Both the position numbers and the translations under genes were made by a program. From an uncultured Candidatus Peribacteria bacterium (GTDB lineage: Bacteria > Patescibacteriota > Gracilibacteria > UBA1369 > 2-02-FULL-48-14): a DNA stretch of 64,000 nucleotides. The notes beneath the pieces are model-generated. The model made no database searches and was not told the origin of the DNA. It worked only from the letters and a program-made list of their open reading frames with translations. This document shows, one piece after another, positions 1 through 24,700 of the stretch (the stretch's first letter is position 1; every line of letters starts with the position of its first letter). The stretch spans positions 33,636 to 97,635 of the forward strand of contig CAZUWE010000003.1 of assembly GCA_964624175.1 (NCBI GenBank). The letters run 5' to 3'.

Positions 1-704
1 TTTTCTTTCTTCAACTTCCCTTTCCCCTCACCCGTTAGGTGGACAATATCGTAAACAGTGGTGAGTGCTTTTTTCTCTTCTTGCACTTTTAGGTTCAATT
101 GCATAGAACCTGCGCTTCCTCCCATCACCAGCAGCACCGGTTTTTTGCCGGTGAAGCCTGTCCATTTTTTGGCCGCAGCGGCCTTACCATCGTACAGACT
201 GAGACGCACAGGGTTGCCCACCACTTCGAGTTTTTGTTTGTAGTGGTCCAAAGATTCTTCCGCTTCTTCGTACCCTAAAAAAATCTTCCGTGCGAAGGGC
301 GCAGATAGACGTGTGGTGAGTCCGGCCTTTGCATCCGACTCGTGGATGAAAACGGGAATGCCAATCAACCATGCCGAAAAAACCACTGGAAATCCCACAT
401 AGCCTCCTTTACTAAAAACCACTTTTGGACGCAGTTTCAAAAGCCTCAAAAAAGCCTGCACAATGCCAACGGGAATTTTAAAAAGGTCGACGAAATTTCG
501 TAGATCAAAGTAACGCCTCAGTTTTCCCGTCGACACACTTTCAAAGTGGATTCCAGCTTCTTCACACAGCCTACGTTCAATTCCTTTTCGTGACCCAATA
601 TAAGTGATCCGTGTCTCGGGATTAAACTCTTTGATAGCGGCGGCTATAGCGATATTGGGGAGAACGTGTCCGGCTGTACCCCCTCCTGTCAGGAGTATAT
701 GCAT
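1..704 (-). CDS. murG: MurG (lipid II GlcNAc transferase); the C-terminal part lies outside the window
   Basis: This ORF is absent from the ORF track because it has no stop inside the window. The reverse complement from the ATG at 704 reads MHILLTGGGTAGHVLPNIAIAAAIKEFN..., the canonical MurG N-terminal glycine loop. The frame stays open to position 1. It lies directly downstream of ftsW, as in dcw clusters. Confidence 0.85.
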   Translation of the reverse strand, partial: MHILLTGGGTAGHVLPNIAIAAAIKEFNPETRITYIGSRKGIERRLCEEAGIHFESVSTGKLRRYFDLRNFVDLFKIPVGIVQAFLRLLKLRPKVVFSKGGYVGFPVVFSAWLIGIPVFIHESDAKAGLTTRLSAPFARKIFLGYEEAEESLDHYKQKLEVVGNPVRLSLYDGKAAAAKKWTGFTGKKPVLLVMGGSAGSMQLNLKVQEEKKALTTVYDIVHLTGEGKGKLKKE

Positions 705-1863
705 AAAGCGTGGTGAATTGAGAAATGTTGAGCAGCACACCCACTCCAACCAAGGTCATTACCATGGACGATCCTCCGTAACTCATGAATGGAAGCGTGA
801 TTCCCGTGATGGGAAACAGGGCGGTGTTCACCATGATGTTAACGAAAGCTTGAACTGAAATCCAGGTAGTAATTCCGGCAGCTAGTAGCATGGAAAACTT
901 GTTAGGCGCATGGTTTGTGATCTGGAAGCCGCGATACGCAATAACTGCATAGAGCAAAACCAGTCCAGCGGTCCTCACAAAGCCCAGTTCGTTTGCACTG
1001 GCCGCAAATATAAAGTCGTCCACGGCTTGAGGAAGCCAGTAGTACTTTTGAGTGCCCTGCGTGAGTCCCTTCCCCCAAAATCCTCCACTACCGATGGCAA
1101 TGTTTGCCTGTTGAGTCTGCCAACAATAACTTTCTCCATTACACTCAGCGGAGGGATTCATGTAAGCCACCACACGTTCTTGAATATGGTCTTGAGTAGC
1201 AAAAGCCAACAGTGCGAGCATCATCCCAGATATAGCAATGAGTCCCAAGTGTTTCCAATGAGCACCTGCGAGGTAGTAAATCACAACCGCAATGGCCGAA
1301 AGCACCATGGCGGACCCGATATCAGGCTGAATCACAATGAGTCCAATAATGGCTCCTGCAATGGCTCCAAATTTCAAAAACCCTTCTTTAAAATCTTGAA
1401 TTTTCTCCATCGACATCTTCTCCGCAAAGAAGTAGCTCAGGTAAAAAATCAGTCCCAGTTTCGCCACCTCTGAAGGCTGTAGCGAGTCGATGAATGGCAA
1501 GGCTCCTCCTACGTTGATCCAGCTAGTCGCAAAGGTTCCATTGTCGCTTCCTCCAAAGAGTACGAAGACCAGCAGCGCAAAGGCGAGCCCATACACAATC
1601 GGTGCAAAACTCTTCCAGTAACGGTAATTCATTTTCCACGCCACGACCATTCCCACCAGCCCAATGAGCGCACGCACCACATGGTTTTTAAGAATGTAGT
1701 AACAGTCCACTGCTTCGTCTGCACAATCTGGATATTTCATACCGGGCGCCGTGATGTTAATGGACTTGGGCACTCCCACACTGGTGATCATAACGACCCC
1801 AATAAGCACCACGGCCAAGACCGCAAGAAGGAGAACCGTATCGTATTTGCTTCGCTTAAACAT
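622..1863 (-). CDS. ftsW: SEDS-family peptidoglycan polymerase FtsW/RodA
   Basis: 413-aa ORF with ATG at 1863 and many hydrophobic helices. It carries the conserved SEDS block ...GITLPFMSYGGSSMV.... It is followed by murG, whose start it overlaps by about 80 nt. Confidence 0.85.
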   Translation of the reverse strand: MFKRSKYDTVLLLAVLAVVLIGVVMITSVGVPKSINITAPGMKYPDCADEAVDCYYILKNHVVRALIGLVGMVVAWKMNYRYWKSFAPIVYGLAFALLVFVLFGGSDNGTFATSWINVGGALPFIDSLQPSEVAKLGLIFYLSYFFAEKMSMEKIQDFKEGFLKFGAIAGAIIGLIVIQPDIGSAMVLSAIAVVIYYLAGAHWKHLGLIAISGMMLALLAFATQDHIQERVVAYMNPSAECNGESYCWQTQQANIAIGSGGFWGKGLTQGTQKYYWLPQAVDDFIFAASANELGFVRTAGLVLLYAVIAYRGFQITNHAPNKFSMLLAAGITTWISVQAFVNIMVNTALFPITGITLPFMSYGGSSMVMTLVGVGVLLNISQFTTLYAYTPDRRGYSRTRSPQYRYSRRYQRV

Positions 1864-1926
1864 GAGGGCGCTAAAAGAGCTCAGCTAGTGTAGCTGAACT
1901 GCCTTAAAGTGGGAAGGCAAAGCGAC

Positions 1927-4900
1927 TTAGATAGAAGCAACTCGAACCACTCGACGGAATCCTACGTTAGGATCTTTGAAGGTAGGATCGTTGCTGGGAC
2001 GAACGTTCATCTGTTTTTGTCCGTTGTACTTACCTGGATTGCTATTTACGCCCCATGAGCCAAGCAGTGGCTGCGTATCAAAACGTAACCATAAGGTCTC
2101 AGAGTCTACTTGGTAACTTGCATTTTCCAGGAAGCTTTTATATTCGGTAGAGGTCATCATATCCACACCCATTCTACGGCAGAGGTCGTTTGCTTCTGCA
2201 AAAGTCTTATCGCGAGTTTGAGGTGCGGTTTTGAAGGCTCCGTCTCCAAATACATAATTTCCTTTATCATCCACAAAGAGGAACTTGGCTTCTCCGCCAT
2301 TGCTTTCAATAAGCGCTAAGCTGGTCAAAACGTTAGGTGACAAGGCATTTTGCACGTCCTTCCATTTTACAGTCCCTTTTGGGGTGAAACGTTTTTTGAG
2401 AAGAATCAACATTTGTTTGTTGAGCTTCTCCATACCCATAAGTTGCTTCATGTGGTCAACATTTGCTGGCTTTTCAATGAGCTCCAGCATTCCGAGAAGC
2501 AGTCGCAGATTTCCTGCAGCCGCTGGCTTACCTGTAAAGTAGGCGGAAAGTCCACCAAGTCTTCCTTTTATCAAGTTAGCTAAGAATGGAATTTGAGAAG
2601 GATCAAGCTCCTCTGAATCAGGTATACCAAGTAGATTTTTAATGGTATTCACGCGATGATCCAACATCTTAAAGTTGAGTGTACCTGTAGTGGCATCCTG
2701 GTCGAGTCCACGGATGTAAAGCATCTGACTGGTGAACAAGCCAGTGTTGAATTTTTCAATCATGGCCACGAGTTTGGAGTCGTCGAGGCTCTTGATTTGT
2801 ACTCCCAATTTATCGTACTCAGCTTGTACTTCGTTTCCTTTCATCAACTTCTCAAGACGTTTATCTGCTGCGAGTACCGCTTTAATCTTATTGAGGTTTT
2901 GTACAATCTTTTGGTGTTGGGTCTTAGTATTGTTGTCTGGCAAAGCAGCTTCGGCACCCAGCTTAGCGATTTGTTCATCGAGAGCAGCGTTCACATCTCC
3001 CATTTCAATAGACACTACAGTAGCATCCACTCCAAGCAGCACTTGGAGTTTTCGCACCAATGCTTCACGAGTGCGATCATGGGTCATCGCTTTATCGAAT
3101 GCAGACTCACTCGTGAGTTCTTTAAAGGTAGCGTCGAATTGACGTGAAGCTTTTGCGTATCCACGCAGGAATGCAACGACATCATCTTCTTCATTCAAGG
3201 CATCAAAGATGCGTCCCCATTCACTCATATTCAAAGTAGCTTCTCGACTGTCAAAGAGCTCAGTCATGTAAGGTTCTGCTGCATCCACCGCTTCGGTGAG
3301 GGTAGCAATAAGCTGTGCGTACTTGGTCTTTTCAATGCTTCCACTTTCAAGCTGTTGTTCAATGGCCGCAATTTGTCCTCGGAGCGTTCCAATATTGATA
3401 CGTCCCTTAAGGTTAAGCAGGTTAGTCAACTCTGTGCGTACCAGTTCTCGGTCAGCCCCACGTCCCATCAAACTAGCAATCTTCGTGCTTGGGAAAAGAG
3501 AAGGAAATTCAGCACGGAGGGCGCGGTCATTGTAGACACGAAGGAAGACCCCTACATCCGCTTTGGTTCGGACACTGCCACCAATGTAGGCAGCGAGGTG
3601 ATGGTACCCAATGTCGCGAGTAGGATCTTCTAAGGTAGCAAAAGTCTTTTCAAGATCTGGGATGGAAACAAAGGCATCCACCGCATCGCTAATTATGTAG
3701 CCAATTTCATGAGCGATATCTCCCGTTGTAGACAGAGCTGCAACGTTGTTAATTCCCAAACGACTTAAGAGTACATCTCTCCGTTTTTCCAAACGATCTT
3801 GAGTGAGGACTCCATCTTCAAATCCAAAGGCTGCCATGAAGCGTGCTCGCACAGCCCGAGGATCTTTATTGATAGCATCCTGGAGTGCATTATTATCGGT
3901 TAAGTACTCGTACAAGTCGTTCACTTGAGCGAGGTCAACACTTCGCTTGAACGCATCTCGTTTCTTATCGTCATCAAGGCCCATGATAACTTTTCCAAGC
4001 TGTGCATGAACGATGGCCTCCTTAGGCTCTGGTTTTTTGAGACCAAAGAGTGCACTCATACGAGCTGAAGTGAGGGTGTTTTCTACTGCCTGAAGGTCTG
4101 CACGCATAGCGTCGTAACGATCTTGCTCGGCTCCAGCAGTTTTAGGTCTTGGCATACGTGCAAGGGCTGAGCGCATCTCAGTCAATGTGTTGCTTACACT
4201 TGAGTGAGGAACCACTCCCTCGGCTTGGCTCACAAAGATGCGTACTTGGCGCTTAGCGAGTTCACGCTCTTCTTCATTTCCACTAGAAATGATGTCGCTC
4301 AATCTGGTTGTGTCCACGATGGCATCAAAGTTTCCACGGAAGAGTGAGCTGCGGTATCCACGGACGGCCGCTGCCACATCAGCTTCGTTGTCGAGGTCTC
4401 CAAAGGTTGCTACAAAATTTTGAGCACTGAAGGTAGTTCGAGTTTTTGGCTTCACTTTTTTATAAAGTCCTTCTAAACGGTCTTTGGTAAGAGTGGTCTC
4501 AATAGCTGTGATGTCTTTTCTTAAGTTGGTATAACCCGGAGTTGTATTGAGTCCAGTCACGCGTGCGAGTTGGTCACGGTAAGCTTGCACAATGGTCTTG
4601 CGGCGGTCTTCAGATACATTACCAATGTTCTGCTTAGCGAAAGCTCGGATTTGCTTCCTTGCCTCCTCACGTTCTTCGTCGGTTCCATCGTTGATCACAC
4701 GGTCGAGCTCAATTTCATCAAAAAGGTAGACATAGTCTCCACGGAAGGTGGCGCTTTGGTATCCACGAACTTGCTTTTCGATATCCGGCACTTCTTCAAG
4801 GTCGATGAAGTGATTGATGAAGTTTTCTGAGCCCGTCCACTCAGTGGCTTCAAAGAGTTTACGAATGATGTCGGCAGTGAAGAGTGGTGCCACTTTGTTC

Positions 4901-6621
4901 AGCACTGTTTTTACCTCTCCAAATTTAGCCAGTTCTACCGTTCCATCTCCAAGGCGTTTGAGCATAGTGGTCACTCGATCCGTGACTTCTGCGGCATCGA
5001 ACGGCTCGGTCACTCCGGTGAGGGATACCACTTGGTCGATGACTTTGCGTCGTCCAACATCGGTGTTTAAGCTGGCGACTTTGATGGCAGGGAGCACCGC
5101 TGAAAAACTTGCTTCTAAGGCATCGGGGTCGAATTTCTTAAGCGCATTGGCACGGTTCTTAGTATTGATGGCAACGAATACTGTTGAACTGAAATTCTTG
5201 TATTTTTCTTCAGTCCACTCAAAGCCGCTTCCCTCTTCTGCTGTTTCTGGATACAGTTTTTTGAGTGTGGCGTCATCTAAGTTATTGAAAGCAGTTTCTA
5301 CAAGATTCAAGATAGCATCTCGAGTAGTGGTGTAAGGATCAATCGCTGTTCCTTTTTGTAAACGCTTTTCCATTTGTGCCTTACGTTCTGCAAGTTTTTG
5401 CTTGTTTACGGTTCCCCTCACATTGAAGAGATTTTGAATTTGTTCCTTAAGGTCGTCTGGATTGTGTTTTAGTTCAGCCGCCACATTGGCAGGATCCAAT
5501 AGGTCACCCACCTTGATTTCCATGTCGTCGATTCCGTCTTTTTCAATACGGTTGAGGAAAGGTTTGATGGACTTTGAGTTCACCTTAAGAAGGGTATCTC
5601 CAATCTTGTCGTAATCCATTGCAAAGTCGTCTTCCTTTTCTTCGGTTCCATAGATCTTGTCGAGTGCGGCTTGATCCAGCAGTTCATTGGCTTGGAAAAG
5701 AATCTTAACAAATTCAACATACTGTTTAGTGATCCGAGGGTCTTTTGCATGGCTGGTGTCCACATCAATATTTCCGTGGTGACGGTGAGCGTGGATGTGG
5801 AGCAGTGTCTCAAAATGCTTATACACTTCATCGATTTCTTTGCGGTCCACATTTCCAGACAGATCAAAAAGGTTTGCGATTTCCTTCTTGATTTCTTCTC
5901 GGCCGGCTTCAGATTTGAGAGCTTTTTTAAAGCGGTCTTTATCGATAAACATCTTAAACGTTCGTTTAAGATTAGCGACATCGAGAGCCTTAAAGAATCC
6001 TTCAAATGCATGGTGGTCGAGAGCCTCTTTACCTTTCTTTGCAGCCTTTTTATCCTTCTTCAACTTGTGAAGAATTTGGTTTCCAATCGACTGATCTTCC
6101 GTAGGCACTTCATGAATCTCTGGGAAAAGTTTGTCTTTGGTGAATTTGAGTGCCTTTCCAAGTAGTGGAAGTGCGGCGCTGTAGTGGCCTGCGTGAGCAA
6201 GGAAGTGGATTCCTTTATCGAGCAAGTCCTGGTCGTGGTCATCATGATCTCCGTGACCATGACCGTGGCCCAGTGCATGTCCAGCAACTGCGGCAGAGAC
6301 AATGGGATGCCCATGGGCGTCCACTGCGGGTGCAGCATGATCTCCTGCATGAGCGGCATCGGGTGCGTGATGATCTCCATTATTCGCTGCTCCATGAGCA
6401 CCGTGTGCTCCGTGGTCAGCACCATGCGCACCATGGTCGGCCCCGTGTCCAGCACCTACAGTTTCACTGACCGCATCGTAGGTCACTCCTTTCAATAGAT
6501 TTCCAAAGGCATTCGCGACTCCAAGCAAACCCCCATTGTTGAAGCGCAAGGTGTTGTTGGATGCGTGACCGTGGTCCGCTCCTTCGTGATGTTCCGCTGA
6601 ATGTGCGTGTGCTCCTGACAT
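1927..6621 (-). CDS. Giant (1564 aa) protein of unknown function with a His-rich N-terminus, degenerate helical repeats and a small FGE-sulfatase/C-lectin-like C-terminal module
   Basis: Uninterrupted 4.7-kb ORF with ATG at 6621. The N-terminal ~130 aa are rich in H/G/A/D (GHGADHGAHGADHGAHGAHG..., GHGHGHGDHDDHDQD). The middle has repeated modules (VRGYQSATFRGDY... / VRGYRSSLFRGNF... / FLRGYAKASRQFD...). The C-terminus ends ...FAEANDLCRRMGVDMMTSTEYKSFLE...VGFRRVVRV. There is no signal peptide. Confidence 0.8.
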   Translation of the reverse strand: MSGAHAHSAEHHEGADHGHASNNTLRFNNGGLLGVANAFGNLLKGVTYDAVSETVGAGHGADHGAHGADHGAHGAHGAANNGDHHAPDAAHAGDHAAPAVDAHGHPIVSAAVAGHALGHGHGHGDHDDHDQDLLDKGIHFLAHAGHYSAALPLLGKALKFTKDKLFPEIHEVPTEDQSIGNQILHKLKKDKKAAKKGKEALDHHAFEGFFKALDVANLKRTFKMFIDKDRFKKALKSEAGREEIKKEIANLFDLSGNVDRKEIDEVYKHFETLLHIHAHRHHGNIDVDTSHAKDPRITKQYVEFVKILFQANELLDQAALDKIYGTEEKEDDFAMDYDKIGDTLLKVNSKSIKPFLNRIEKDGIDDMEIKVGDLLDPANVAAELKHNPDDLKEQIQNLFNVRGTVNKQKLAERKAQMEKRLQKGTAIDPYTTTRDAILNLVETAFNNLDDATLKKLYPETAEEGSGFEWTEEKYKNFSSTVFVAINTKNRANALKKFDPDALEASFSAVLPAIKVASLNTDVGRRKVIDQVVSLTGVTEPFDAAEVTDRVTTMLKRLGDGTVELAKFGEVKTVLNKVAPLFTADIIRKLFEATEWTGSENFINHFIDLEEVPDIEKQVRGYQSATFRGDYVYLFDEIELDRVINDGTDEEREEARKQIRAFAKQNIGNVSEDRRKTIVQAYRDQLARVTGLNTTPGYTNLRKDITAIETTLTKDRLEGLYKKVKPKTRTTFSAQNFVATFGDLDNEADVAAAVRGYRSSLFRGNFDAIVDTTRLSDIISSGNEEERELAKRQVRIFVSQAEGVVPHSSVSNTLTEMRSALARMPRPKTAGAEQDRYDAMRADLQAVENTLTSARMSALFGLKKPEPKEAIVHAQLGKVIMGLDDDKKRDAFKRSVDLAQVNDLYEYLTDNNALQDAINKDPRAVRARFMAAFGFEDGVLTQDRLEKRRDVLLSRLGINNVAALSTTGDIAHEIGYIISDAVDAFVSIPDLEKTFATLEDPTRDIGYHHLAAYIGGSVRTKADVGVFLRVYNDRALRAEFPSLFPSTKIASLMGRGADRELVRTELTNLLNLKGRINIGTLRGQIAAIEQQLESGSIEKTKYAQLIATLTEAVDAAEPYMTELFDSREATLNMSEWGRIFDALNEEDDVVAFLRGYAKASRQFDATFKELTSESAFDKAMTHDRTREALVRKLQVLLGVDATVVSIEMGDVNAALDEQIAKLGAEAALPDNNTKTQHQKIVQNLNKIKAVLAADKRLEKLMKGNEVQAEYDKLGVQIKSLDDSKLVAMIEKFNTGLFTSQMLYIRGLDQDATTGTLNFKMLDHRVNTIKNLLGIPDSEELDPSQIPFLANLIKGRLGGLSAYFTGKPAAAGNLRLLLGMLELIEKPANVDHMKQLMGMEKLNKQMLILLKKRFTPKGTVKWKDVQNALSPNVLTSLALIESNGGEAKFLFVDDKGNYVFGDGAFKTAPQTRDKTFAEANDLCRRMGVDMMTSTEYKSFLENASYQVDSETLWLRFDTQPLLGSWGVNSNPGKYNGQKQMNVRPSNDPTFKDPNVGFRRVVRVASI

Positions 6622-6634
6622 AAAACTTTAATGA

Positions 6635-9034
6635 TTAATGGTGTCCACCTCCGTGGGCAGCTGCATGACCGTGATCTCCCCCATGGTCTCCGCCGTGAGC
6701 GGCGCCATGATCTTCATGTCCACCGTGACCTCCCGAAGGCGCGTGGAAGATAGAAAGTTCAGGGATTTCAGCATCGAGTCCAAGTAGATCTTTAGAAGTA
6801 GCGTTGGCAATTCCTTCTCCCGCCCCATATATAGAGAAGAGCGAACCCGCTGCAAGTGCTAAAGCGCCTTGTTTGCTTCGGTACCAAGCACCCTTAAGTT
6901 TGTTGTTCATCCAAGTGAATGGAGAAGTCCATCCTTTTGGTTTTTTAACGGTTGGCTTGGTGATGTAATTGGTAGCCCAACGAGCGGCTTGGTATCCACG
7001 TTTGAAAGGTGAGCTTACAATGCGTCCGGTGGCTTTGATTGGGTTCACAATCGCAGTCTTTGCAACCGCGCCTACTAAGGTAGCTCCATCGGTCACTAAA
7101 TGTTTCCCTACGTTCAAGGCGAGTGGTGCGGCTTTCTTTATACCATAAACTCCCAAAGCGACTCCTCCCACCACAAGGGCTCCTGTTGAAATACCTGCAA
7201 TGGCCACCCCAAGCGCACTGTATTTTGCAATGGTCTTGGCTTTGTCTGGATTGCTACGTACCCAATTGATTCCAGCTTTTGGCCAGTTCCAAAGCAGGTT
7301 TTTAGGAAGACCTAAAAACCCAGGGATAACATTGTTTCGTACTCCTTTGGCTACGAACTTAGCTGCATCTTTTACATTTTGAACGCGGTCTCTCCAGAGC
7401 ACATCTATTAAATGTTCTCTATTTTTGATACTACCTGCTCGTGCAAAAGCGGCCTCAAAAATAGCATCTACCTCTTCAGCATCGGTATCGAGATCCAGCA
7501 TAGGCCTAAGGGCAAGTTTAATATCCGCCTCAGTGGTACCGGCTTTTTGAAGTCTAACCACCTCTTCTCCCAGTTTTCTTTTTGCAACGATTCGATCTGC
7601 AACTTTGTCTATCATGAATCGGCTGTCCGCCCAACGAATGGCGTATTCAAGAATGGCTTGTTGCTTAGGATGGTGCACAATGTTTGGGTCCGACATGAGA
7701 GTATGACGAATGTTCACGTCGTCCGTTCCATTGGCTTTAAGGTAACGAACTCGAGTGAAAATACCATGATCTGTTAAGAAATCATCCCAGGTCCTTTCAT
7801 CGGTTAGCGGTAAAAAGCTCTTAAAGTCTGACCTCATGTTCATCTTTCGCTCGTGCGCTTCGGCGCGTTCAAAAGCTCGATTGATGAGTTCAGTGATTTC
7901 GGCACCTGAACGGCCTTGAGCGTCAAAATCAGCTTCAAGGTCTGCTTCTATATTTGCTCGCGATTGCCCGGCACGTAGTGACATTGCAACTGCAGCATCA
8001 ATGTTGTTCGCGGTGATGAATTTTTTCTGCAGTTTTGCTCGGAAAGCTTCGTTGCCAAACATGGCAAAAGCATAGTCCGCAATTTCCTCGGAACGTGCCA
8101 CACCTGCTTCATGCAAATATCCTTCAATGGTTTCCCAGGCAGTATCCCCGTCCACCTCTTGTTGTTCCATCAAGCGCAAGGTGCTGATGATTTGGTGTCG
8201 CTCCAGGATGCCATCCCACTGTCTTTGTGGCGAGAAAGGCACCTTCATGAAACGACGATTCCACTTGTTTGTGCTTTCACGCTTAGCGGCCGCTTTATCT
8301 TGTGCCTTGTTATAAGCTTTTTTAGCAGCCTCGGTAGCCACGTCCATGATTTGCTGCACTTCACCAGGAGCACGGTTGTAGGTACGTGTTCTTTCGATAT
8401 CTTTCCGTACACTCAATAGGACGTAGTTTCGGTCTTCTCCAGCACGAACACGGCGAACAATTTGGTCCACCAGTTTTTCTTTTTTCACGAAGGCCTCTGC
8501 GGCCTCGAGTTGAGCTTTTTTATCGGTAGCTACGTTGTAGCTGAGCTTGATCAACTCATCTAGATTGGCAGGCCCCTTGAATCGTCGTCGAGCTTCTTCC
8601 TCAATGTCCGGTCGGCTTTCGATGGCTTCGTCCACTTTTTCACGGATGAAGCTCACTAGACCCATGTCCTGTGCTTTTTCAAGATTTGCACTGGCGTTGA
8701 AGTCATACACTCTTTCGCGGAAACCTTGAGCCAACTGCTCTACCGCGCTTGGACCAGGAGTGTCTCGCAAAATAAAGCGTCCCCTCTCATCGAGGTCGAT
8801 GCGGCGAGACCCAAATTTTTTCTCGAGGGCTGCTCGGACTTGAGCCACTTCTCCTCCGTTGGCAACTGCAAAGTCGGGTGCTCCAGGCCCCTTGACCTGC
8901 AGCTCTCCGTCGTTGAATCGGAACTGAGTTCCATTTGGAAAAGTTCCTGTGCAGAGAATAATAGCACGGTCAGCGTCTAAACGCACATCTCCTTCTGTTG
9001 CTTGATCAACCTCAATGAGTTTTCCGAATGCCAT
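6635..9034 (-). CDS. Large (~799 aa) protein of unknown function with C-terminal hydrophobic/glycine-zipper segments and a His-rich tail
   Basis: The ORF-track start at 9052 is a TTG, and the first ATG (MAFGKLIEVD) is at 9034. There are three ~40-aa internal repeats (R/K-AG-x-S/T...AF-x-RA). A hydrophobic region reads AKYSALGVAIAGISTGALVVGGVALGVYGI. The tail reads GGHGGHEDHGAAHGGDHGGDHGHAAAHGGGHH. The stop is 13 nt before the next gene's ATG. Confidence 0.8.
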   Translation of the reverse strand: MAFGKLIEVDQATEGDVRLDADRAIILCTGTFPNGTQFRFNDGELQVKGPGAPDFAVANGGEVAQVRAALEKKFGSRRIDLDERGRFILRDTPGPSAVEQLAQGFRERVYDFNASANLEKAQDMGLVSFIREKVDEAIESRPDIEEEARRRFKGPANLDELIKLSYNVATDKKAQLEAAEAFVKKEKLVDQIVRRVRAGEDRNYVLLSVRKDIERTRTYNRAPGEVQQIMDVATEAAKKAYNKAQDKAAAKRESTNKWNRRFMKVPFSPQRQWDGILERHQIISTLRLMEQQEVDGDTAWETIEGYLHEAGVARSEEIADYAFAMFGNEAFRAKLQKKFITANNIDAAVAMSLRAGQSRANIEADLEADFDAQGRSGAEITELINRAFERAEAHERKMNMRSDFKSFLPLTDERTWDDFLTDHGIFTRVRYLKANGTDDVNIRHTLMSDPNIVHHPKQQAILEYAIRWADSRFMIDKVADRIVAKRKLGEEVVRLQKAGTTEADIKLALRPMLDLDTDAEEVDAIFEAAFARAGSIKNREHLIDVLWRDRVQNVKDAAKFVAKGVRNNVIPGFLGLPKNLLWNWPKAGINWVRSNPDKAKTIAKYSALGVAIAGISTGALVVGGVALGVYGIKKAAPLALNVGKHLVTDGATLVGAVAKTAIVNPIKATGRIVSSPFKRGYQAARWATNYITKPTVKKPKGWTSPFTWMNNKLKGAWYRSKQGALALAAGSLFSIYGAGEGIANATSKDLLGLDAEIPELSIFHAPSGGHGGHEDHGAAHGGDHGGDHGHAAAHGGGHH

Positions 9035-9149
9035 ACGGGATTTACAATTCAAATTATCTAGTAAGTATAGCAGATTTTCTACTTTTTCACAAGGGGCCTA
9101 ACAGGAGCGCCACCTTGGCAAGATTTTGGATTCTTGATAGGCTGAATTC

Positions 9150-9623
9150 ATGAGTCTTTTGCCCATACGCCAGCTCGACAAAATTTGGATCTTTTTTGCG
9201 CCCATTTTTGTGCTGCTTTTTGGAGCTGATCAGGTTAGCAAGGAGTGGGCTGTGACTCACCTAAGCACCGAAAAATCTGTGGATTTTGGGCTCGCGCTCA
9301 CTCACAACAACGGTATTGTTTTTGGTTATGACTTGCCCCTTGCTGTGATTTACCTCCTTACCGTGGGAATTTTGTCTTTGGGTGTGTACCTAGTGATTCA
9401 AAACAAGCTCTGGCGAGATCACTGGCACTTAGCTGGCCTGGCATGTTTACTGGCTGGCGCATTGGGAAATCTGGTGGACCGCATCCGCTTTGGATATGTG
9501 ATCGATTTTATCAAAATTTATTGGTGGCCCACGTTTAATTTGGCCGATGTGTGGATTGTGCTCGCGGTGCTCGTTTTTGCCTGGGAATTTTTGTTCCGCG
9601 AAGAAACAATGAAAAAGCTTTAA
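9150..9623 (+). CDS. lspA: Lipoprotein signal peptidase II
   Basis: 157 aa with 4 hydrophobic helices. Conserved LspA blocks are present: ...NNGIVFG... and ...FNLADVWIVLAV.... Confidence 0.85.
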   Translation: MSLLPIRQLDKIWIFFAPIFVLLFGADQVSKEWAVTHLSTEKSVDFGLALTHNNGIVFGYDLPLAVIYLLTVGILSLGVYLVIQNKLWRDHWHLAGLACLLAGALGNLVDRIRFGYVIDFIKIYWWPTFNLADVWIVLAVLVFAWEFLFREETMKKL

Positions 9624-17019: not shown

Positions 17020-18996
17020 TTAGAAGTACATGTTGTAGAGGATCTTAATAGCTTCTGCACGGGTGATCGAAGCACCTGCATTGAAGCACATTCCCCCATC
17101 ACACTCGCTTCCTGAAACAAACTCCCACTCGGTTGCTAAAGTTACCAACTCAGCGTACCAAGCAGAGGTATCTAGATCTTCGTAAGCATCGGTTACGTCA
17201 CTAGCCATAATAGAGTCCGCCTCTTCCTGCATTCCATCCATCAAGTAAAGATAGAGGTTCACAGACATTTGGAGGAACTCTGCGCGGTTGATTTCTTCAC
17301 TTGGCTCGTAGGTTCCGTCAGGGTTTCCTTCAACGATGCCAAGGTCTTTGAGGCCTGCAACGTATCCGGCGTACCATGCGTCCATATCTACATCTTCAAA
17401 TGGATCTTTACTAGGATCGCTAGGCTCAGAAACTGAGTAGATTCTCCACAGAATCGCAGCAGCTTCTGCGCGGTTTAGATTTCCGTCTGGACTGAAGCTT
17501 CCATCAGGATTTCCTTGTGCAACTCCAGCTTCCGCCATTACTTGTATTTCCCACTGCGCCCAGTGTCCATCGGTATCGGTGAACTCAACCTCTTCCATTT
17601 CATCAGTAGTGTCTTCGTCATCGCTAGTATCGTCAGTGGTTTCGTTTTCATCGGTAGTGTCGTCCGTGGTCGTGTCGTTTTCATCACTGGTGTCTTCTTC
17701 GTCTGTAACCGTATCATCGCTGTCGCTCGTGAAGCTAACGGTCAAAGTCACTTCATCGGTGAGTGTACCGGTGCGTCCGCTTCCGTACGCACGGAGTTGA
17801 TAGGTAACCACATCTCCTTCTTCTACGTCTTCATCTACAAAGGTTTCTACCCCTGCTGCAACGGTTGCGTACACAGTACCGTTAACAGGCAGTGGGTCGG
17901 TTCCCTTGAGAATTTGAATTTCAGTGGTGTCGTCGTCTGGATCGTTCCAGTTGAGTACCACGGCTCCATCTTGATTTTCAGCAGTGAGGCCAGTAGGAGT
18001 TCCTACGGTTACGCTCACTGTATTTCCCACGATTGTGCTAGCGGGCACGTTCACATCTTTTTGAATTTCATTTCCTGCTCCAATGGTGAGTACCACGGTG
18101 TAAATGTTCGTAGACCCGGTGCTAGATGGGTTTCGAATATTCTGAAGAGTGAATGACTTGGTTCCACCGGAAGTATTGGATGTGTTGTTTTCCGTCAATG
18201 TCACGACCTGTCCACTTCGAGTCGCTGTCCAGTTCGCAGCCGTTAGTCCACTTGTGAGTATGGGGGTCTGTGAAGTTCCAAAGTCCGTAAGATCGAATCC
18301 ATTTGGAAAAGTCACTACGATCTTTCCTTGTTGAGGAATGCTCGCTGTGCTGGTGAAGTTGACGGTCACATTCCCAGTTGCTCCCACGCTGGTTGAAGCA
18401 GGAGCTACACTAACTCCAGTCAGAGTTCCAGCATTTACTGGCTGGCTGATGGTATTGGTGGTTGGACGGAAAGTATTGTTTGAAGAAGTGTTGGCATCTA
18501 CCTGAATCAAGGATTTGTTGCTAGTGGCGTTCATCGCGTACGCAGAAGCGATCTTCAAACCTGAAACCGTTACGGTCTCTCCGTTTGCGTCGTCTCCTCC
18601 TCCAGTTAAGAGGGTGAACGTTGCAATGGTTTTAGACCCGTTATAAGTAACGGCAGGTGTTCCTGTGGCTCCAAAGGTTCCACCAATAGTTACCACCGTT
18701 ACAGAGTTATCAAAAGCCAAGCTTGGATAGTCCACTGTGTTAATGGCGATATCAAAGCTTTCGGTATCAGCGATATCATCACCTCCGTTAGAAGAAATGG
18801 TGATCATACCTAAGGTCTCAGAAGCATTTCCTACGACTGGTATCGTAGCATCTCCTCCAAGAGTGTCTCCTCCAGTAACGTTGAAGTCACCGGCGGCAGC
18901 AAAGGCGGATGCTGTCCCAAGGATAAAGAAAGCTCCTACCGCCAGCAAGGAGTTTAACAGGGTTCTAACCCTAAATAGGCGTGGTGTATCTAGCAT
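17020..18996 (-). CDS. Secreted surface protein with a C-terminal triple SLH anchor
   Basis: 658 aa with a signal peptide (...GTASAFAAAG), a Thr/Ser/Gly-rich beta region and an FN3-like module (VVLNWNDPDDDTTEIQILKG...). An acidic D/T/E linker follows, then SLH repeats (GHWAQWEIQVMAEAGVAQGNPDGSFSPDGNLNRAEAAAIL...). Confidence 0.85.
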   Translation of the reverse strand: MLDTPRLFRVRTLLNSLLAVGAFFILGTASAFAAAGDFNVTGGDTLGGDATIPVVGNASETLGMITISSNGGDDIADTESFDIAINTVDYPSLAFDNSVTVVTIGGTFGATGTPAVTYNGSKTIATFTLLTGGGDDANGETVTVSGLKIASAYAMNATSNKSLIQVDANTSSNNTFRPTTNTISQPVNAGTLTGVSVAPASTSVGATGNVTVNFTSTASIPQQGKIVVTFPNGFDLTDFGTSQTPILTSGLTAANWTATRSGQVVTLTENNTSNTSGGTKSFTLQNIRNPSSTGSTNIYTVVLTIGAGNEIQKDVNVPASTIVGNTVSVTVGTPTGLTAENQDGAVVLNWNDPDDDTTEIQILKGTDPLPVNGTVYATVAAGVETFVDEDVEEGDVVTYQLRAYGSGRTGTLTDEVTLTVSFTSDSDDTVTDEEDTSDENDTTTDDTTDENETTDDTSDDEDTTDEMEEVEFTDTDGHWAQWEIQVMAEAGVAQGNPDGSFSPDGNLNRAEAAAILWRIYSVSEPSDPSKDPFEDVDMDAWYAGYVAGLKDLGIVEGNPDGTYEPSEEINRAEFLQMSVNLYLYLMDGMQEEADSIMASDVTDAYEDLDTSAWYAELVTLATEWEFVSGSECDGGMCFNAGASITRAEAIKILYNMYF

Positions 18997-19122: not shown

Positions 19123-21054
19123 CTAGAGCGCGTCAGAAAACATACGGTATAAAATCACCGTTGCTTCCGCGCGTGTGATGGAACTGGCTGCATTGAAGCA
19201 GCGCCCTTCACTGCACACAGATCCCTGCACGAATTCCCACTCTGTTGCTAGCGTAACCACTGGTGCATACCAAGCCGCGGTGTCGAGGTCATTGTAAACA
19301 TCAGTCATCTCGCCTTCCATGATTTGGGTAGCTGTTGATTCTAGGTCTTCATTTACATGCAAGTACACATTCATCGCTAGCTGAAGGAATTCCGCACGGT
19401 TGATAGATTCTGCCGGCTCGTAGCTTCCATCGGGGTTCCCTTCCACAAGGCTCAAATCTTTGAGCTCAGTGATGTAAGCGGCATACCATGCCTCCATGTC
19501 CACATCGGTGAAGGGGTCAGCCCAGGCTACGTCAGGGTCTCCCATATCCAGTACACGCCACAAGAGGGCGGCAGCTTCTGCGCGGTTCAAATCTCCTTCG
19601 GGATTAAAGCTACCATCGGGGTTTCCTTCCACAATGCCACCTTCCGCCATGGCCGTTATTTCAGTTTCCGCCCAGTGCCCTTCAATATCATTCAAGTCCA
19701 CTTCAATAACTTCATCGGTCTCACCTGTGGTTTCGTCGTCTACTGTCGTGTCGTCTTCAGTGTCTACTTCGTCGTCAGTGGTGTCGGCTCCATCCGTAGT
19801 GTCATCAGTGCTATCGTCAGAAGAACCCACCGTAAATGTCACTTCATCGGTGAGGTCGCCATAGGTGCTTCCACTGGTGGCACGAAGCTGATAGGTCACA
19901 ACGTCGCCTTCTTCCACATCGGTATCGGTGTAGGTTTCAGTTCCTACGGGGACTTCGGTGAGTGCGGTTCCATCCACTGGAAGGGGCGCTATACCACGCA
20001 AAATTTGAACAGTGGTGGTGTCGTCATCAGGATCGGTCCAGGTGAGCACCACTCCATTTCCGTCTTCTGCGTCAGTGATTTCTAGATTGGTGGGTTCTCC
20101 AACCGTTATACTAGAGCTTGCTTCTGTAATCGTGTCTCCAGGCACTGCTGTGTCTGTTTCAATACTATTTCCTGAACTGTCTTTAGTGGTGATCGTGTAG
20201 TTGCTGGTGGTTCCTGTGGTAGATGGGTTGCGAACGGGCACCACTTCAAAACTCAAAGCGCCAGCACTCGTAGCACTGCCACCCGACTGCGTATACGTCA
20301 CCGTCTGGCCTGCTACGCTCGCGGTCCATGTCCCTGACATACCTGAAAGGCGCTGAGCTGTGGTTGATCCAAGACTAGAAAGGTCAAACCCGGAAGGGTA
20401 GGTGATGGAAATCTTACCTCCACTAGGGATTTGAATGCTGGTGGTTAAGAAAACTGTGTGGGTGGTGCTTTGATTCTGTGCGTAGGTGTAGAAAGTTAGA
20501 TTGGTAGACGCCAAAGGATCCGCGCTCACGTTCACTGTGTCAGAGCCGCTGGGATTGGTGTCACCTCCGTTTGCCGTTGCGCCTCCAAAGGCAAAGCTAG
20601 AGGCTGCGTTGGCATAGGTAGGAATGTTGTTAGCCGTGATGAGGAAGCGAATGGTCTCAGCCCCGTTATTGGGTGCTCCCCAGGTGCTTACATCCCATTT
20701 AACGGTGATGGTGCGTACAGAGGTAGCGTATTGACCATTTCCTGCCCCTGCTGTGATAGCGGTTTCGTTGGTCGCATCGTTATTGGCATCTCCATCGTTT
20801 TCAACGGTGAAAGTGAGAGCGCTCCATTGTGGAAAATTGTCGGGGAGCGTGAGGGTAAGTGTATCTCCATCTGCCCAGGTTTGTTGCGCGGTGTCTACAG
20901 TGTACTCAATTTCCAAAGATACATGTGTGCCCACGGTTGCTGTGGTTTGAACCACATCGTAAACACTGGCCGCAAAGGCCACATTCGCCCCTAAAGTAAA
21001 GAACAAGAGGGATGCGAGCGTGCTTTGCCCGAGGATTCGCTTTAAATTCACCAT
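19123..21054 (-). CDS. Secreted surface protein with a C-terminal triple SLH anchor; paralog of 17020..18996
   Basis: 643 aa with the same architecture as its neighbour. The FN3-like, acidic-linker and SLH parts are clearly alignable with it (e.g. VVLTWTDPDDDTTTVQILRG..., GHWAETEITAMAEGGIVEGNPDGSFNPEGDLNRAEAAALL). Confidence 0.85.
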   Translation of the reverse strand: MVNLKRILGQSTLASLLFFTLGANVAFAASVYDVVQTTATVGTHVSLEIEYTVDTAQQTWADGDTLTLTLPDNFPQWSALTFTVENDGDANNDATNETAITAGAGNGQYATSVRTITVKWDVSTWGAPNNGAETIRFLITANNIPTYANAASSFAFGGATANGGDTNPSGSDTVNVSADPLASTNLTFYTYAQNQSTTHTVFLTTSIQIPSGGKISITYPSGFDLSSLGSTTAQRLSGMSGTWTASVAGQTVTYTQSGGSATSAGALSFEVVPVRNPSTTGTTSNYTITTKDSSGNSIETDTAVPGDTITEASSSITVGEPTNLEITDAEDGNGVVLTWTDPDDDTTTVQILRGIAPLPVDGTALTEVPVGTETYTDTDVEEGDVVTYQLRATSGSTYGDLTDEVTFTVGSSDDSTDDTTDGADTTDDEVDTEDDTTVDDETTGETDEVIEVDLNDIEGHWAETEITAMAEGGIVEGNPDGSFNPEGDLNRAEAAALLWRVLDMGDPDVAWADPFTDVDMEAWYAAYITELKDLSLVEGNPDGSYEPAESINRAEFLQLAMNVYLHVNEDLESTATQIMEGEMTDVYNDLDTAAWYAPVVTLATEWEFVQGSVCSEGRCFNAASSITRAEATVILYRMFSDAL

Positions 21055-21080: not shown

Positions 21081-21641
21081 TTAGTTGATGAGACCGTGGT
21101 CAAGTTTGTAATCTTCAATTTCTTGCTTGAGCTCGCTTAAGAATGCTAAATGCTCTGCAGAGGTGTCGCCGGTGGTCGCTGAGGCATAGGTATCGAGGGC
21201 GATTTGAGCGTTTTCTGGGTCGTCTGCTTTCAAAAGGATGCGAACAGCATCGGAGGCCGCCTCTCCGCTGGATTGCGAGTTTTGGAAGTAAACCATGATA
21301 TTTTCTGCAGCCAAGTCGTACTCTTCCACTTTTTCGTAGATGGAAGCCAAATTGTTATAAACCACTAAATTATCAGGGTTTGCGTCCAAAGATTTCTTGT
21401 AGTATTTGACCGCTTTCTTAAAATCTTCTAGAGCGTCGTAGCGGAAGGCAATTTCTGCAAGGGCTTCATAGTCGTCAGGATTCTCTTCTAGCTTAAGTTC
21501 ATTTTCTTCAATTAGGTCATATTGGTGTTGAATCCACCCCTCATCAAGGTGGCTAATGTCTCCTTGCCATTTTGGGTTTCCACAGGCGTTTAGAATAACG
21601 GTTGAAAGGGCAAGCGAGACTAGAACAGATTTCGTTTTCAT
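21081..21641 (-). CDS. TPR-repeat lipoprotein
   Basis: 186 aa with signal peptide and lipobox ...VILNAC. TPR-like repeats are present (AEIAFRYDALEDFKKAVKYYKKSLDANPDN...). Confidence 0.7.
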   Translation of the reverse strand: MKTKSVLVSLALSTVILNACGNPKWQGDISHLDEGWIQHQYDLIEENELKLEENPDDYEALAEIAFRYDALEDFKKAVKYYKKSLDANPDNLVVYNNLASIYEKVEEYDLAAENIMVYFQNSQSSGEAASDAVRILLKADDPENAQIALDTYASATTGDTSAEHLAFLSELKQEIEDYKLDHGLIN

Positions 21642-21764: not shown

Positions 21765-24700
21765 TTAGTAGGTAAGGGTGTTACCAGTAACTCGTGAAGA
21801 TACATCTCCAAGCCACTTAACAGTAGCGTTGGTGTCATGCCACCAGAAGTCTCCAGCAGTGATAGTTTGAACATCACCAGAAGTTACTGAGCTTCCTGCG
21901 TCCATAGAGAAGGTTACAGGGTCATCAGATCCTGAATCTTCGTTAAGGAGAGCAGAGCTGTTCACATGGAGAGTGTAAGTCTCGGTGGTTCCCTTAGCCA
22001 CTTCAATTGCAGTGGTTGGGATGAAGGTCACAGTCGCGGTGCTGGTAGCAGAAGCTCCGTTTGTAGAGCTTTCCCAGAATCCAACAGCGAGAGTAGTGTT
22101 TCCTTCCTTGAGGTCAGCCTGAGAAGGTGAACCTGCGTTAGCAGTGTTGTTAGCGTAGGTATCAACGTCTCCGTCAGTGCTTACATCAACAACGATCTTT
22201 TCGTTGTATGCAAGTACGTCGTCAACTTGGATGACATCGTTGGTGATGGTTCCAGGGAGTGCATCGAGCTCGATAGAGAAGAACTTCTCTCCGGCAACTG
22301 CACCCGCAACTGCAACATCACAACGGTACCATTCTCCTGATACAAGAGTAGATTGGTCAGCTCCACAAAGTGCTTGTGAAAGAGCCACTCCACCAGTATT
22401 AGGATCAGCAGTAGCTGTGTTGATTACGTTGGTCTTAAGACCAGCGAAGGTAACTGCATTGTCTGCACCAGAGTCTACGAAGCGGATCCAGAATGATACG
22501 CGAGCGTAGTCAACTACATCGTTGGTGAATTGACCAACGAATACAGAGTCGCTAGCGAGGTAGTTAGAGAGGGTAACGGTAGAACCGCTTCCATCAACCA
22601 TAGTACCAGCAGCGGTAGTAGTGGTAGGTGCAGCATTGTTAGCTCCAGCTGAATCGAATCCAGCTACAGAGCTAGCTTCTTGAGCAGCACGAACTTGTAC
22701 GAGTTCCTTAGCGTTAGCAGAAACGTTGAACACGAATGCGCTATCGTCTGAAGTTACGGTACGAGTTCCGCTAGCTGAAGATGAAGCCAAAGCCAAGGTA
22801 GGCTTGGTTTCGTATACGTACATTGGGTTGGTCGTGTCGAGGTATCCATCTCCTGGGAGGATGTAGAGAACGTCATCGTTATCTGCAGAGCTCTTTGTAG
22901 AGGTTACATCGGCAGTCGCATTGTCAATGAGCATAACAGTAAGGGTGTCTTCCGTAGCACCGTCAGCTTGCGCAGCGGTTACAACGTAGATTTCATCCGT
23001 ACCAACGGTACAAGTTGCATCGTCACCAGTAGAAGTACAGATCAAAGTACCAACTGGGAAGATTACATCAGGATCAGCTCCAGCTTCGTTGTCGAAGAGG
23101 AGAGTTTGGTTAACTCCAAGAGCTGCAGCGGTTCCCGCTCCGTCGATTTCCTTAGAGGAATCGGTCCAGGTCAGAGATCCGAGGTCGAGATCAGATGTAG
23201 CGAGTACATCGTTGTCGAGCTTGTCAGCCTTGTAAGTTTCTCCGCTTGATTCAGCACGAGCCTCAAAGTTGTTGAGGGCAAGGTCAAGACGTACAGGGTC
23301 ACCTGCAGTAGCTTGTCCGCTTGCAATGCTGTTAAGGTCAGCGGTTACTTCAACCGTAGCGCTTCCATCCTTCTCAACGTAGAGGTCGAGGTCGGTGAAG
23401 GTTGCGTTACCAGATACGAGAGATGCAGAGTCAGTAACGGTGTTACCATCTGAATCTTCGTAAGTGAGGTATACCTTGTTAACTTGGTTGTCGTATTCAC
23501 CGAGGTCAGCATCAGCAACTCCGTTTTGGTCTGCGCTTACAGCGAGCTTACGAACGGTGAATGCTTCAGAAGTACTGGTGAACTTGAACATAGAAGCAGA
23601 AACATCGTCTGTGTCAGCAACTGCGAGATCTTCTCGAGCAGTTGAAGGGTCAACAGAAACGGTGATTGAACCTCCATTGGTTACTACAACCCATGAAGTA
23701 GCGGTCGTAGCAGATGGAGCGTTAACCGTTCCAGTAGCAGAGATGGTGTTTCCTTCTTCGTCTTCAACTACAACGTTAGAAGCAGAAGTTACCTTGAAGG
23801 CAATGCTTTCTGCGTTGTTGTTCTTGAAGGCATCAGATTTAACGTTACCTACAACCGTGTAAACTGGGCTATCTCCAGCTGGGATTGTGAGGTCAAGATT
23901 GTCCATGGTTACGAGACCAGTAGAAGCAGTTACGCTTGCTGAGCTGTCTTCAACCATTTCTCCATCTTCATCAACGAGCCAAACGCTTCCTACAACTTCG
24001 TTAACGTTAACTGCGTTGTCAACTCCTGGAGTTCCAGCAGTTGAAGCGAAGGTAGAACCTCCGTCTTCATCGATGGTTCCAACGAGTGAAACGCTGGTAA
24101 CACGACAATCAGATGCATTTCCACAGGCCATAACGATACCAGTGAAAGGAACGTCTTCAGTTCCCTTAACGTAGTTGGTACCACCAGCTACTGGGGTAGA
24201 TGCAAGAGAGAGTGCGAGTGAAGGAGTGCGGATCGTCATGGTCTTACCAGTAACTGGAGACGCAGGAACGAGTACCGTGCTGTTTGTGAGGGTCTTGTTG
24301 TTAACATCTTTCATTTGAGGGTAGGTCGTTCCAAGAGCAAGAGCTCCTACAACGGTCATTCCATCAAGAGCGGTGTCGTTACGAACATCGGTGGTCAAAG
24401 CCAAGTCGAGTTCTTCTCCGGCATCCATTTCGAAGTCTTCAGTGAAGAGATGGTAAGCAGTAGCTCCATCAGTTCCATCGGTGATGTTGGTTCCACCAAT
24501 GGTTTGCTTGAACACGCTTGAATCTACACCTGCGAAGAGGCCAGATTCAGTTTCGTTGTTCCAGATCTTAACATCAGTGAAGTTTGCAGCATCATCGCTG
24601 TCTTGCCAGAGACCTTCGTCGGTATCAGAACCTTCAGAAGCGGTAAGACTGATTGGGAAGCTGTCGAATGTAACATCAGTTACAGAAACGATGTTGAAGT

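Follow-up and report, generated by a model that had tools for sequence, protein, structure and literature searches.

In a 64,000-nucleotide (nt) stretch of chromosome from an uncultured Candidatus Peribacteria bacterium (contig CAZUWE010000003.1; hereafter the window), two adjacent minus-strand genes, A (6635..9034) and B (1927..6621), almost certainly encode the two halves of one protein that was split by gene fission, as judged by comparison with relatives. We regard A and B as one split protein because fused relatives carry both in one chain and in the same genomic slot. The family is uncharacterised and clade-restricted, and its clade includes a Candidatus Peribacteria metagenome-assembled genome (MAG) (Peregrinibacteria, candidate phyla radiation (CPR)). 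CPR bacteria, Peregrinibacteria among them, have not been cultured, and little is known of how they make their envelope and divide. The whole protein comprises a beta-rich N-terminal domain, a variable helical region, a membrane module, a first linker (linker 1, the break point), a Gly-rich motif, a second linker (linker 2), a pre-repeat segment and 4-8 repeats; in the split forms the membrane anchor lies on A and the repeat array on B. Taking sequence and gene order together, we marginally favour an overall explanation in which the pair would form a split, membrane-tethered scaffold co-expressed with a SEDS polymerase and MurG.

A split pair and its fused relatives

Gene A encodes 799 amino acids (aa) from an ATG at 9034 to a stop codon at 6635-6637, as given by the list of open reading frames (ORFs), the Met of its orthologs and a database gene call (P0007). 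We set the start at this ATG because orthologs begin MAFGK or MAL... and the gene call agrees; a TTG six codons 5' would give an alternative ORF of 805 aa (6635..9052). Gene B encodes 1564 aa, with its extent taken from the ORF list and from homologs P0001-P0006. The spacer between them (6622..6634, minus strand; 13 nt, TCATTAAAGTTTT) holds no terminator and no obvious Shine-Dalgarno sequence. These ORFs bear out the layout described in an earlier, sequence-only reading of this DNA, with two co-oriented genes 13 nt apart and 63 nt ahead of an ftsW-type gene.

An exhaustive search with a B profile hidden Markov model (HMM) over 1.84 billion cluster representatives (proteins) returned only 30 clusters. 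Word-indexed homolog searches gave 6 matches for B (P0001-P0006) and 2 for A, and a 4-sequence A profile search gave 2 while missing two of its own inputs, so it is uninformative on breadth. A-profile scans of a genome collection and of metagenomes found one locus each: L006, labelled 'uncultured Candidatus Peribacteria bacterium', and L007, a near-duplicate of L002. The result defines a lineage-restricted family of 30 clusters, for which Pfam, NCBIfam and the PDB contain no detectable relative.

Seven split lineages were compared: the window (with L010 and L011), L001, L002/L007, L003-L006, L008, L009 and L015. Conservation of the pairing, on which the sequence-only reading depended, held in every split relative: A and B are adjacent and co-oriented in 7/7 lineages, with spacers of 9-18 nt and differing relative frames, and both halves are long intact ORFs with a proper ATG at 30-76% identity. 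Programmed frameshifting or readthrough from A into B was considered and rejected because the relative frame differs among lineages.

At least 5 of the 30 clusters are fused in one chain: P0020 (1324 aa), P0023 (1105 aa), P0025 (1422 aa), P0027 and P0028. The fused order is the A membrane module, then the N-terminal motif of B, then the B repeats. By BLASTP, P0023 residues 253-401 match A 614-760 (39% identity, expect value (E) 7e-22) and residues 466-955 match B 367-853 (E 3e-15); P0020 and P0025 match the A module and then the B repeats in the same order with no overlap. An HMM of the A membrane module finds P0020, P0023, P0027 and P0028, and the junction alignment of split and fused proteins is collinear, with the break placed in the linker that joins the membrane module to the FNNGG.LG...LLKGVTYDA motif. 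The two halves have no detectable homology to each other when the A profile is compared with the B profile by hhalign.

Split and fused genes occupy the same chromosomal position. Fused genes lie in the order lspA (minus strand), fused gene, ftsW, murG in L013 and L014, and in the order lspA (minus strand), fused gene, TPR gene, gene for a 279-aa protein, ftsW in L012; on the 4.7-kb contig L017 the fused gene follows lspA (minus strand) and the contig ends before the downstream side. Split pairs fill this lspA/ftsW-murG slot in the window, L001, L002, L003, L008 and L015, and L009 shows the adjacent pair only. The upstream neighbour lspA is invariant wherever that side is visible (L001-L003, L008, L012-L015 and L017), and the family sits between lspA and SEDS-murG wherever both flanks are readable.

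As in other gene fission and fusion ('Rosetta stone') pairs, A and B are adjacent co-oriented ORFs collinear with one polypeptide at an orthologous locus, with the break in a disordered linker; all three defining features of a fission pair, namely a collinear single polypeptide, an orthologous locus and adjacent intact ORFs in several lineages, are present. Unlike those pairs, the A and B termini carry expanded His-rich tracts of co-varying composition, and we know of no such feature at both new termini of another fission pair. The sequence-only reading had pictured two independent proteins with matching metal-binding tails. That picture is not supported as drawn, since the fused relatives are one polypeptide and the tails correspond to the two sides of a broken linker. 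With split and fused forms side by side, the family offers a natural setting in which to ask how a protein outlives fission, and whether a covalent linker can give way to metal-His contacts.

His-rich termini at the break

On the junction alignment, the facing His-rich termini are the two stumps of a broken, expanded and His-enriched linker 1. The A tail (residues 768-799, 6638..6733, minus strand) is a His/Gly/Asp tract formed by the last 32 residues, ending HH (GGHGGHEDHGAAHGGDHGGDHGHAAAHGGGHH), and B opens with the His stump MSGAHAHSAEHHEGADHGH; the first ~130 aa of B have the same composition as the tail, as the sequence-only reading had noticed. His accounts for 24% of the residues in the A tail and 22% of those in the N-terminal disordered parts of B, against 1-2% elsewhere in both proteins and 2.5-3.1% of the whole proteins. 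In 7/7 split lineages the A tail contains His and terminates in His, and every split B starts MS.A..H(APEHH). The tracts are present across the split lineages and are conserved features of the split forms, not the strain-specific expansions that the earlier reading had guarded against.

L009 is the only lineage with Lys in both stumps, whose Pro enrichment is shared by L002 and L008; guanine-plus-cytosine (GC) content (47-51%) and His in the rest of the protein (1-2%) are constant across lineages. Set against the fused forms, the A tail and B N-terminus appear in the junction alignment as an insertion of ~60-70 aa. The fused junctions of P0023 and P0025 span 33-39 aa with 0-1 His, and 2/3 fused proteins examined have almost no His at this place. 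Because these two junctions do nearly or wholly without His and the stumps of L008 are mostly Pro/Ala, His-richness appears dispensable for the core function of the family.

In the mechanism we propose, the conserved Gly-rich motif at the N-terminus of B, which adjoins the module in the fused forms, would dock B onto A at the membrane, and His-metal-His bridges (Zn or Ni) or homotypic contacts between the stumps might add to this docking. Zn-His contacts are reported to drive oligomerisation of His-rich disordered proteins (PMC6571702). That the stumps functionally re-join the two halves is a plausible but tentative suggestion from their sequences. A more specific form of it, in which they would be a selected metal-dependent 'clasp' of Zn- or Ni-bridged His re-joining a split scaffold that serves as a lineage-specific SEDS-MurG organiser in Peribacteria, we consider unlikely. 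If the clasp were real, assembly of such an organiser would depend on metal availability or pH, and the pair would exemplify conditional split-protein reconstitution in nature.

The strongest competing account, possible though doubtful, is that the His stumps arose by neutral low-complexity drift through slippage and that the halves associate, if at all, through the Gly-rich motif and the module. Several observations favour it and weigh against a selected role for the stumps. The most His-rich tract of B lies away from the break, in linker 2 (residues 55-130; His/Gly/Ala/Asp-rich), and fused P0020 likewise has a His-rich (His/Glu/Lys) second linker. Linker 2 carries a 21-nt tandem repeat at 6397-6448 (2.5 copies, unit DHGAHGA; Tandem Repeats Finder), from which it follows that the tract changes length, and can grow, by slippage; indels separate the window from its 70-76%-identical relative. 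Composition has shifted to Pro/Ala in L008, which has only 3-4 His per stump, Lys has been gained in L009, and the His-poor or His-free junctions of P0023 and P0025 point the same way. Against drift stand the 10-20-fold enrichment of His over the rest of the protein in both stumps of every split lineage, the terminal His of every A and the SHAPEHH-type starts kept in B. The His fractions of the A tail and of the N-terminal disordered parts of B also track each other at unchanged GC (r=0.97, from 6 lineages that are phylogenetically non-independent points).

Architecture of A

A opens with a small beta-rich domain (residues 17-90, 8765..8986, minus strand; pattern G..DG..F....G.L.V) modelled by AlphaFold2 (AF2) at a predicted local distance difference test score (pLDDT) of ~60-69. 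Conserved columns show that it is kept in split and fused relatives, and it is duplicated in P0025. The domain is possibly MORN-like; Pfam MORN gave no match for A of the window and only 18.6 bits (cut-off 22.5) in fused P0020. The helical region that follows varies, and A proteins span 466 to 1045 aa. In the window it includes two copies of a ~143-aa helical repeat (residues 265-514, 7493..8242, minus strand), at 265-371 and 408-514, which match each other in tiled BLASTP at E 5.9e-5 and each contain the motif '(R/K)AG...AF.RA'. AF2 models residues 265-514 as all-helical (residues 420-530 at pLDDT 57-85, mostly 70-85). The sequence-only reading had described degenerate helical repeats in both proteins, with a unit of ~40 aa in A. 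Repeats are real in both; the ~40-aa unit is part of the ~143-aa period, and its motif occurs three times, at residues 197, 354 and 497, with a spacing of ~143-150 aa rather than in tandem.

The most conserved part of A is the membrane module (residues 600-767, 6734..7237, minus strand), delimited by hydropathy and charge. Its helix 1 is a Gly/Ala-zipper hydrophobic segment (residues 604-631, Kyte-Doolittle hydropathy (KD) 1.95), and helix 2 is a weaker hydrophobic segment just before the tail (residues 724-745, with KD 1.27 over 724-743; motif YG.GEG..NA). The stretch between them is basic and aromatic-rich, with a net charge of +16 and the motifs NVGKH..DG, NPIKA.GR..SSPFKRGYQ and AWYR.KQ. 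Across the family helix 1 has KD 1.4-1.95 and helix 2 has KD 1.1-1.8 with the pattern YG.GEG..NA, and the loop is 66-132 aa long with a net charge of +8 to +17, 8-14 aromatic residues and the motifs GR..SSPFKRGYQ and AWYR.KQ. AF2 modelled A poorly (pLDDT 48.7 from a 2-sequence alignment), and the membrane module falls below pLDDT 40. In fused P0020 (L013), residues ~360-415 inside the basic loop of the module hold 'SHAPEHH' and a Gly-rich segment, NIFSRGLSSIGNGISSVASGAWDLT; this element looks like an internal duplicate of the split-B N-terminus (SHAPEHH...FNHGGVLG...KGVTYDA).

Architecture of B

B is soluble and elongated, with no hydrophobic or transmembrane segment by hydropathy, and the pairing of one membrane-tethered with one soluble partner that the sequence-only reading had drawn fits the hydropathy of both proteins. 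No signal-peptide-like N-terminal segment is present in A or B by inspection and hydropathy, in line with the same reading. Residues 1-130 (6232..6621, minus strand) form a disordered N-terminus (AF2 pLDDT 20-25) that contains the conserved Gly-rich motif FNNGGLLG...LLKGVTYDA at residues ~25-55 (DNA 6457-6549). Its invariant columns in a 6-sequence alignment are F27 N28 G30 G31 L33 G34 ... K44-A50, and in the fused proteins it aligns to the segment directly after the membrane module. The motif was also considered as a signal peptide and rejected on its hand-calculated mean hydropathy of ~0.8-1.2 and the charged residues it carries in orthologs.

Residues 131-201 (6019..6231, minus strand) form a conserved pre-repeat region, GHYSAALPLLGKALKF.K.KLFPEIHE.PTEDQ..G.QILHKLKKDKK, of low AF2 confidence and with an invariant H170 in the 6-sequence alignment. 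The repeat array occupies residues 202-1261 (2839..6018, minus strand), where an iterated HMM delimits eight tandem ~117-aa all-helical repeats (8 domains, E 1e-16 to 1e-30); each family member examined has 4-8 copies. The first repeat begins with invariant D202 H203 H204 E207 (LDHH.EGF). Tiled BLASTP gives self-matches between residues 598-728 and 733-867 (E 1e-15) and between 474-596 and 1006-1129 (E 4e-5). An AF2 model of residues 1-1200 shows 1-177 as disordered and 200-990 as all-alpha, with pLDDT mostly 70-90 and a predicted template modelling score of 0.30. The ~117-aa helical repeat and the bipartite membrane module of A are newly defined here.

The centre of each B repeat is an EF-hand-like helix-loop-helix, for example EEIKKEIANLFDLSGNVDRKEIDEV, and aligns to the C-lobe helix-loop-helix of the calmodulin EF-hand pair (whole-chain E 6e-4, domain E 0.013). 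The B loop, which reads for example DLSGNVD or NVRGTVN, falls ~two residues short of the canonical 12-residue Ca loop, is missing most of the acidic ligands and gives no Pfam EF-hand match; the likeness would at most be one of shape. Two consecutive in-phase partial matches of the B repeat profile to PDB entries 22yz_A/22za_A, 'Type III effector protein', were non-significant (22yz whole-chain E 0.0025, domain E 0.27), although that structure may have a repeat of the same type.

B ends in a lineage-specific extension (residues 1262-1564, 1930..2838, minus strand) shared by the window and its 76%-identical relative alone and absent in P0003-P0006. Its last 197 aa (residues 1368-1564, DNA 1930-2520, minus strand) reach 26.7 bits against Pfam DUF4256 (cut-off 27; E 5e-6 for the domain alone), in an alignment that covers only profile positions 4-73 of 173. 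DUF4256 is a family of no known function, and we take the ending ...GFRRVVRV of B to be typical of this family (PF14066). The domain is absent from all B-family members other than the window and its 76%-identical relative.

The sequence-only reading could place neither protein in a characterised family, and wider searches agree. Nothing above threshold came from scanning A, B, their sub-domains and 8 relatives against Pfam, NCBIfam, PADLOC and PHROG (PADLOC none at E<=0.1; PHROG one meaningless match at E 0.065), and the PDB gave no match by sequence or by profile to A, B or the B C-terminus. Foldseek with the B model against PDB and BFVD found nothing specific, only generic alpha-solenoids, the best matches in a comparison with HEAT/ARM proteins being Utp10, Kap114 and CRM1 (E 2.6e-3 or worse, template modelling score (TM) <=0.13), and with A, whose model is too poor at pLDDT 48.7, it found nothing usable. 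In the literature, we found nothing relevant on DUF4256 or on a CPR divisome partner.

Gene order and a possible role in wall synthesis

A and B would form a complex that serves as a membrane-tethered scaffold, is produced along with the SEDS polymerase (FtsW/RodA type) and MurG, and acts in cell-wall synthesis or division. We propose a scaffold working with this wall-synthesis pair because the SEDS gene and murG directly follow in 7/9 readable lineages, spacers are short and the window has no terminator-like site there. A role with SEDS and MurG is nonetheless put forward with reserve, as a possibility that gene order suggests. The ftsW linkage claimed by the sequence-only reading stands for those seven lineages and needs amending in the other 2/9 (L003 and L012), where two genes intervene. 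In 7 lineages the B-SEDS spacers measure 35-106 nt. The wall-synthesis machinery may have a clade-specific partner here, and the family is a concrete candidate for it.

A rather unlikely alternative is that the gene order is inherited synteny and that the split anchored repeat protein has a job apart from SEDS and MurG, such as membrane tethering or remodelling, or serving as a platform for other partners. The proposed function draws on gene order throughout, and the SEDS adjacency may be inherited rather than selected, which counts against our explanation together with two observations on the neighbourhood. Gene order is collinear over ~20 kb in all these lineages and functionally mixed, running metK, GT4, DUF1385, pgeF-like, amidohydrolase, Band_7, aroE, lspA ... 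ftsW, murG, GT1, miaB-like, alaS; and in L003 and L012 the interval from B, or from the fused gene, to the SEDS gene tolerates TPR and beta-helix genes. Pfam and NCBIfam scans found no peptidoglycan-linked domain in A or B, and the variable N-terminal region and a repeat number of 4-8 fit a generic scaffold. Mere inheritance sits less well with the same-strand SEDS adjacency and its short spacers, which are kept to members that BLAST aligns at ~21-24% identity, and with the lack of a terminator-like site between B and the SEDS gene in the window. Should the stumps prove to be drift and the gene order inherited, A-B would be a lineage-specific hypothetical protein of the ordinary sort, albeit one whose gene structure has an interesting history.

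The inserts between the family and the SEDS gene (L003 12771-17551 and L012 7163-10615) comprise a large TPR protein (885 or 868 aa) and a second gene, for a 706-aa beta-helix protein or the 279-aa protein; one lineage has the insert on the opposite strand, the other on the same strand. Proximity to the TPR gene may recur in the A-B family. Fic-domain and PemK-toxin genes are inserted at points of the otherwise conserved neighbourhood that differ among lineages (L002 17351-18032, L003 5914-6990 and L015 5757-6227) and are mobile and toxin-antitoxin-like.

Comparison with metal-binding proteins

The His/Gly/Asp low-complexity composition of the tracts is shared with the tails of HypB, UreE, Hpn and SlyD, a likeness that the sequence-only reading had stressed. 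The likeness does not reach the domain level: Pfam and NCBIfam found no metallochaperone domain (CobW/HypB GTPase, UreE or SlyD FKBP) in A, B or 8 relatives, and in A-B the tracts are scaffold linkers, missing in some members, outside any metal-enzyme context. That the two genes encode distinct proteins forming a device for Ni, Zn or Co storage, buffering or delivery through such tails is improbable. Many proteins bind divalent metals through His/Gly/Asp tracts of this composition, and the invariant H170, D202, H203, H204 and E207 of B could form a site. Zn-His binding in disordered proteins is also known (PMC6571702). On the other side, the same scans returned no HypA/B or transporter domain either, metal-enzyme and transporter genes are lacking nearby, some family members are His-poor or His-free, conserved non-His scaffold accounts for >90% of each protein, and relatives carry A and B as one protein.

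Topology of the anchor

B and the 600-aa N-terminus of A would both be cytoplasmic, because B has no export signal and the N-terminus of A is signal-less. With both large parts in the cytoplasm, the module would cross the membrane an even number of times as a hairpin-type anchor, or be monotopic; we give this cytoplasmic hairpin topology a narrow preference from the sequence features. Three points tell against it: the basic loop carries +8 to +17 and the segment after helix 2 is neutral to acidic, a charge pattern that under the positive-inside rule would put the A tail outside, and the AF2 model of the module is of the low confidence noted above.

Under the proposed topology A-B invites comparison with known anchored proteins. 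EzrA, with its spectrin-like repeats, and RodZ are membrane-anchored helical scaffolds of division and elongation; A-B would resemble them in architecture only, having an anchor and a long cytoplasmic helical repeat array beside cell-wall genes. It differs from them in having no Pfam match, Foldseek TM <=0.13 and its own ~117-aa repeat unit, and in an anchor that is a two-helix module inside the (fused) protein rather than an N-terminal single span. A search for EzrA or spectrin likeness gave an alpha-actinin rod only at E 7.3 for A and none among the top 50 Foldseek matches of B. Mitofusin, atlastin and the BDLP paddle are hairpin-anchored with both ends in the cytoplasm, and would share with A-B large cytoplasmic domains flanking two close hydrophobic helices; A-B has no GTPase domain, and its helices lie 90-130 aa apart and enclose a strongly basic region.

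Still less probable than a metal device is an extracytoplasmic repeat array, in which helix 2 would be a signal-anchor (N-in, C-out), the B part of fused proteins would be exported and split B would exit by an undefined route. The charge distribution fits N-in/C-out, with a strongly basic loop ahead of helix 2 and a neutral or acidic segment behind it, and these organisms have many large envelope proteins, among them three SLH proteins in the window. Split B, however, has no signal peptide or transmembrane segment, its Gly-rich motif is charged in most orthologs, and the third span that this arrangement needs falls where hydropathy is weak (KD 0.45-1.26). Finally, a pseudogene or an assembly or sequencing artefact is scarcely credible: the L002 ORFs, in the same frame and 12 nt apart, could alone resemble a nonsense mutation, but seven lineages from different samples are cut at the same place with differing spacers and frames, and their ORFs are intact at 30-76% identity with a proper ATG and the conserved MS.A..H start.

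Neighbouring genes and transcription signals

The SEDS gene (ftsW/rodA type; 622..1863, minus strand, 413 aa) matches Pfam FTSW_RODA_SPOVE at 1.6e-80 over positions 4-354 of 356; as to subtype, TIGR ftsW scores 297 bits and rodA 278 bits, both under the NCBIfam cut-offs. It overlaps murG by 83 nt (622-704). The murG gene (1..704, minus strand) starts with MHILLTGGGTAGH at 704, continues past the window edge and was identified by translation and from the Glyco_transf_28 annotation of the same gene in L010. In that identical contig the automated murG call starts 240 nt late, and the GGTGGH nucleotide-binding loop is lost.

The B-SEDS spacer, read from the sequence, is 63 nt long (1864..1926, minus strand). 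It holds a hairpin, CAGCTA-CAC-TAGCTG at 1882-1896 (minus strand), followed by TCTTTT with only four T in the run; a terminator scan of the spacer called none, the hairpin falling below scan strength, and a consensus scan of the window found no terminator-like site between A, B and the SEDS gene. The hairpin could be an attenuator or a processing site. Upstream, lspA (signal peptidase II; 9150..9623, plus strand; Pfam Peptidase_A8, 2.4e-28) is divergent from A, and the consensus scan places a promoter-like site 5' of A in the lspA-A spacer (9064..9092, minus strand; TTGTGA-17-TATACT with TG), a weak one in that the scan total is not above shuffle expectation.

The rest of the window is ordinary chromosome, with NusA, sigma-70, PurL, PPDK, glycosyltransferases and three SLH envelope proteins. 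The three SLH-domain proteins lie ~8 kb from the pair on the minus strand at 17020-18996, 19123-21054 and 21765-26444 (658, 643 and 1559 aa), with a small TPR protein (21081-21641) among them, and the cluster probably encodes S-layer or envelope proteins of this CPR organism.

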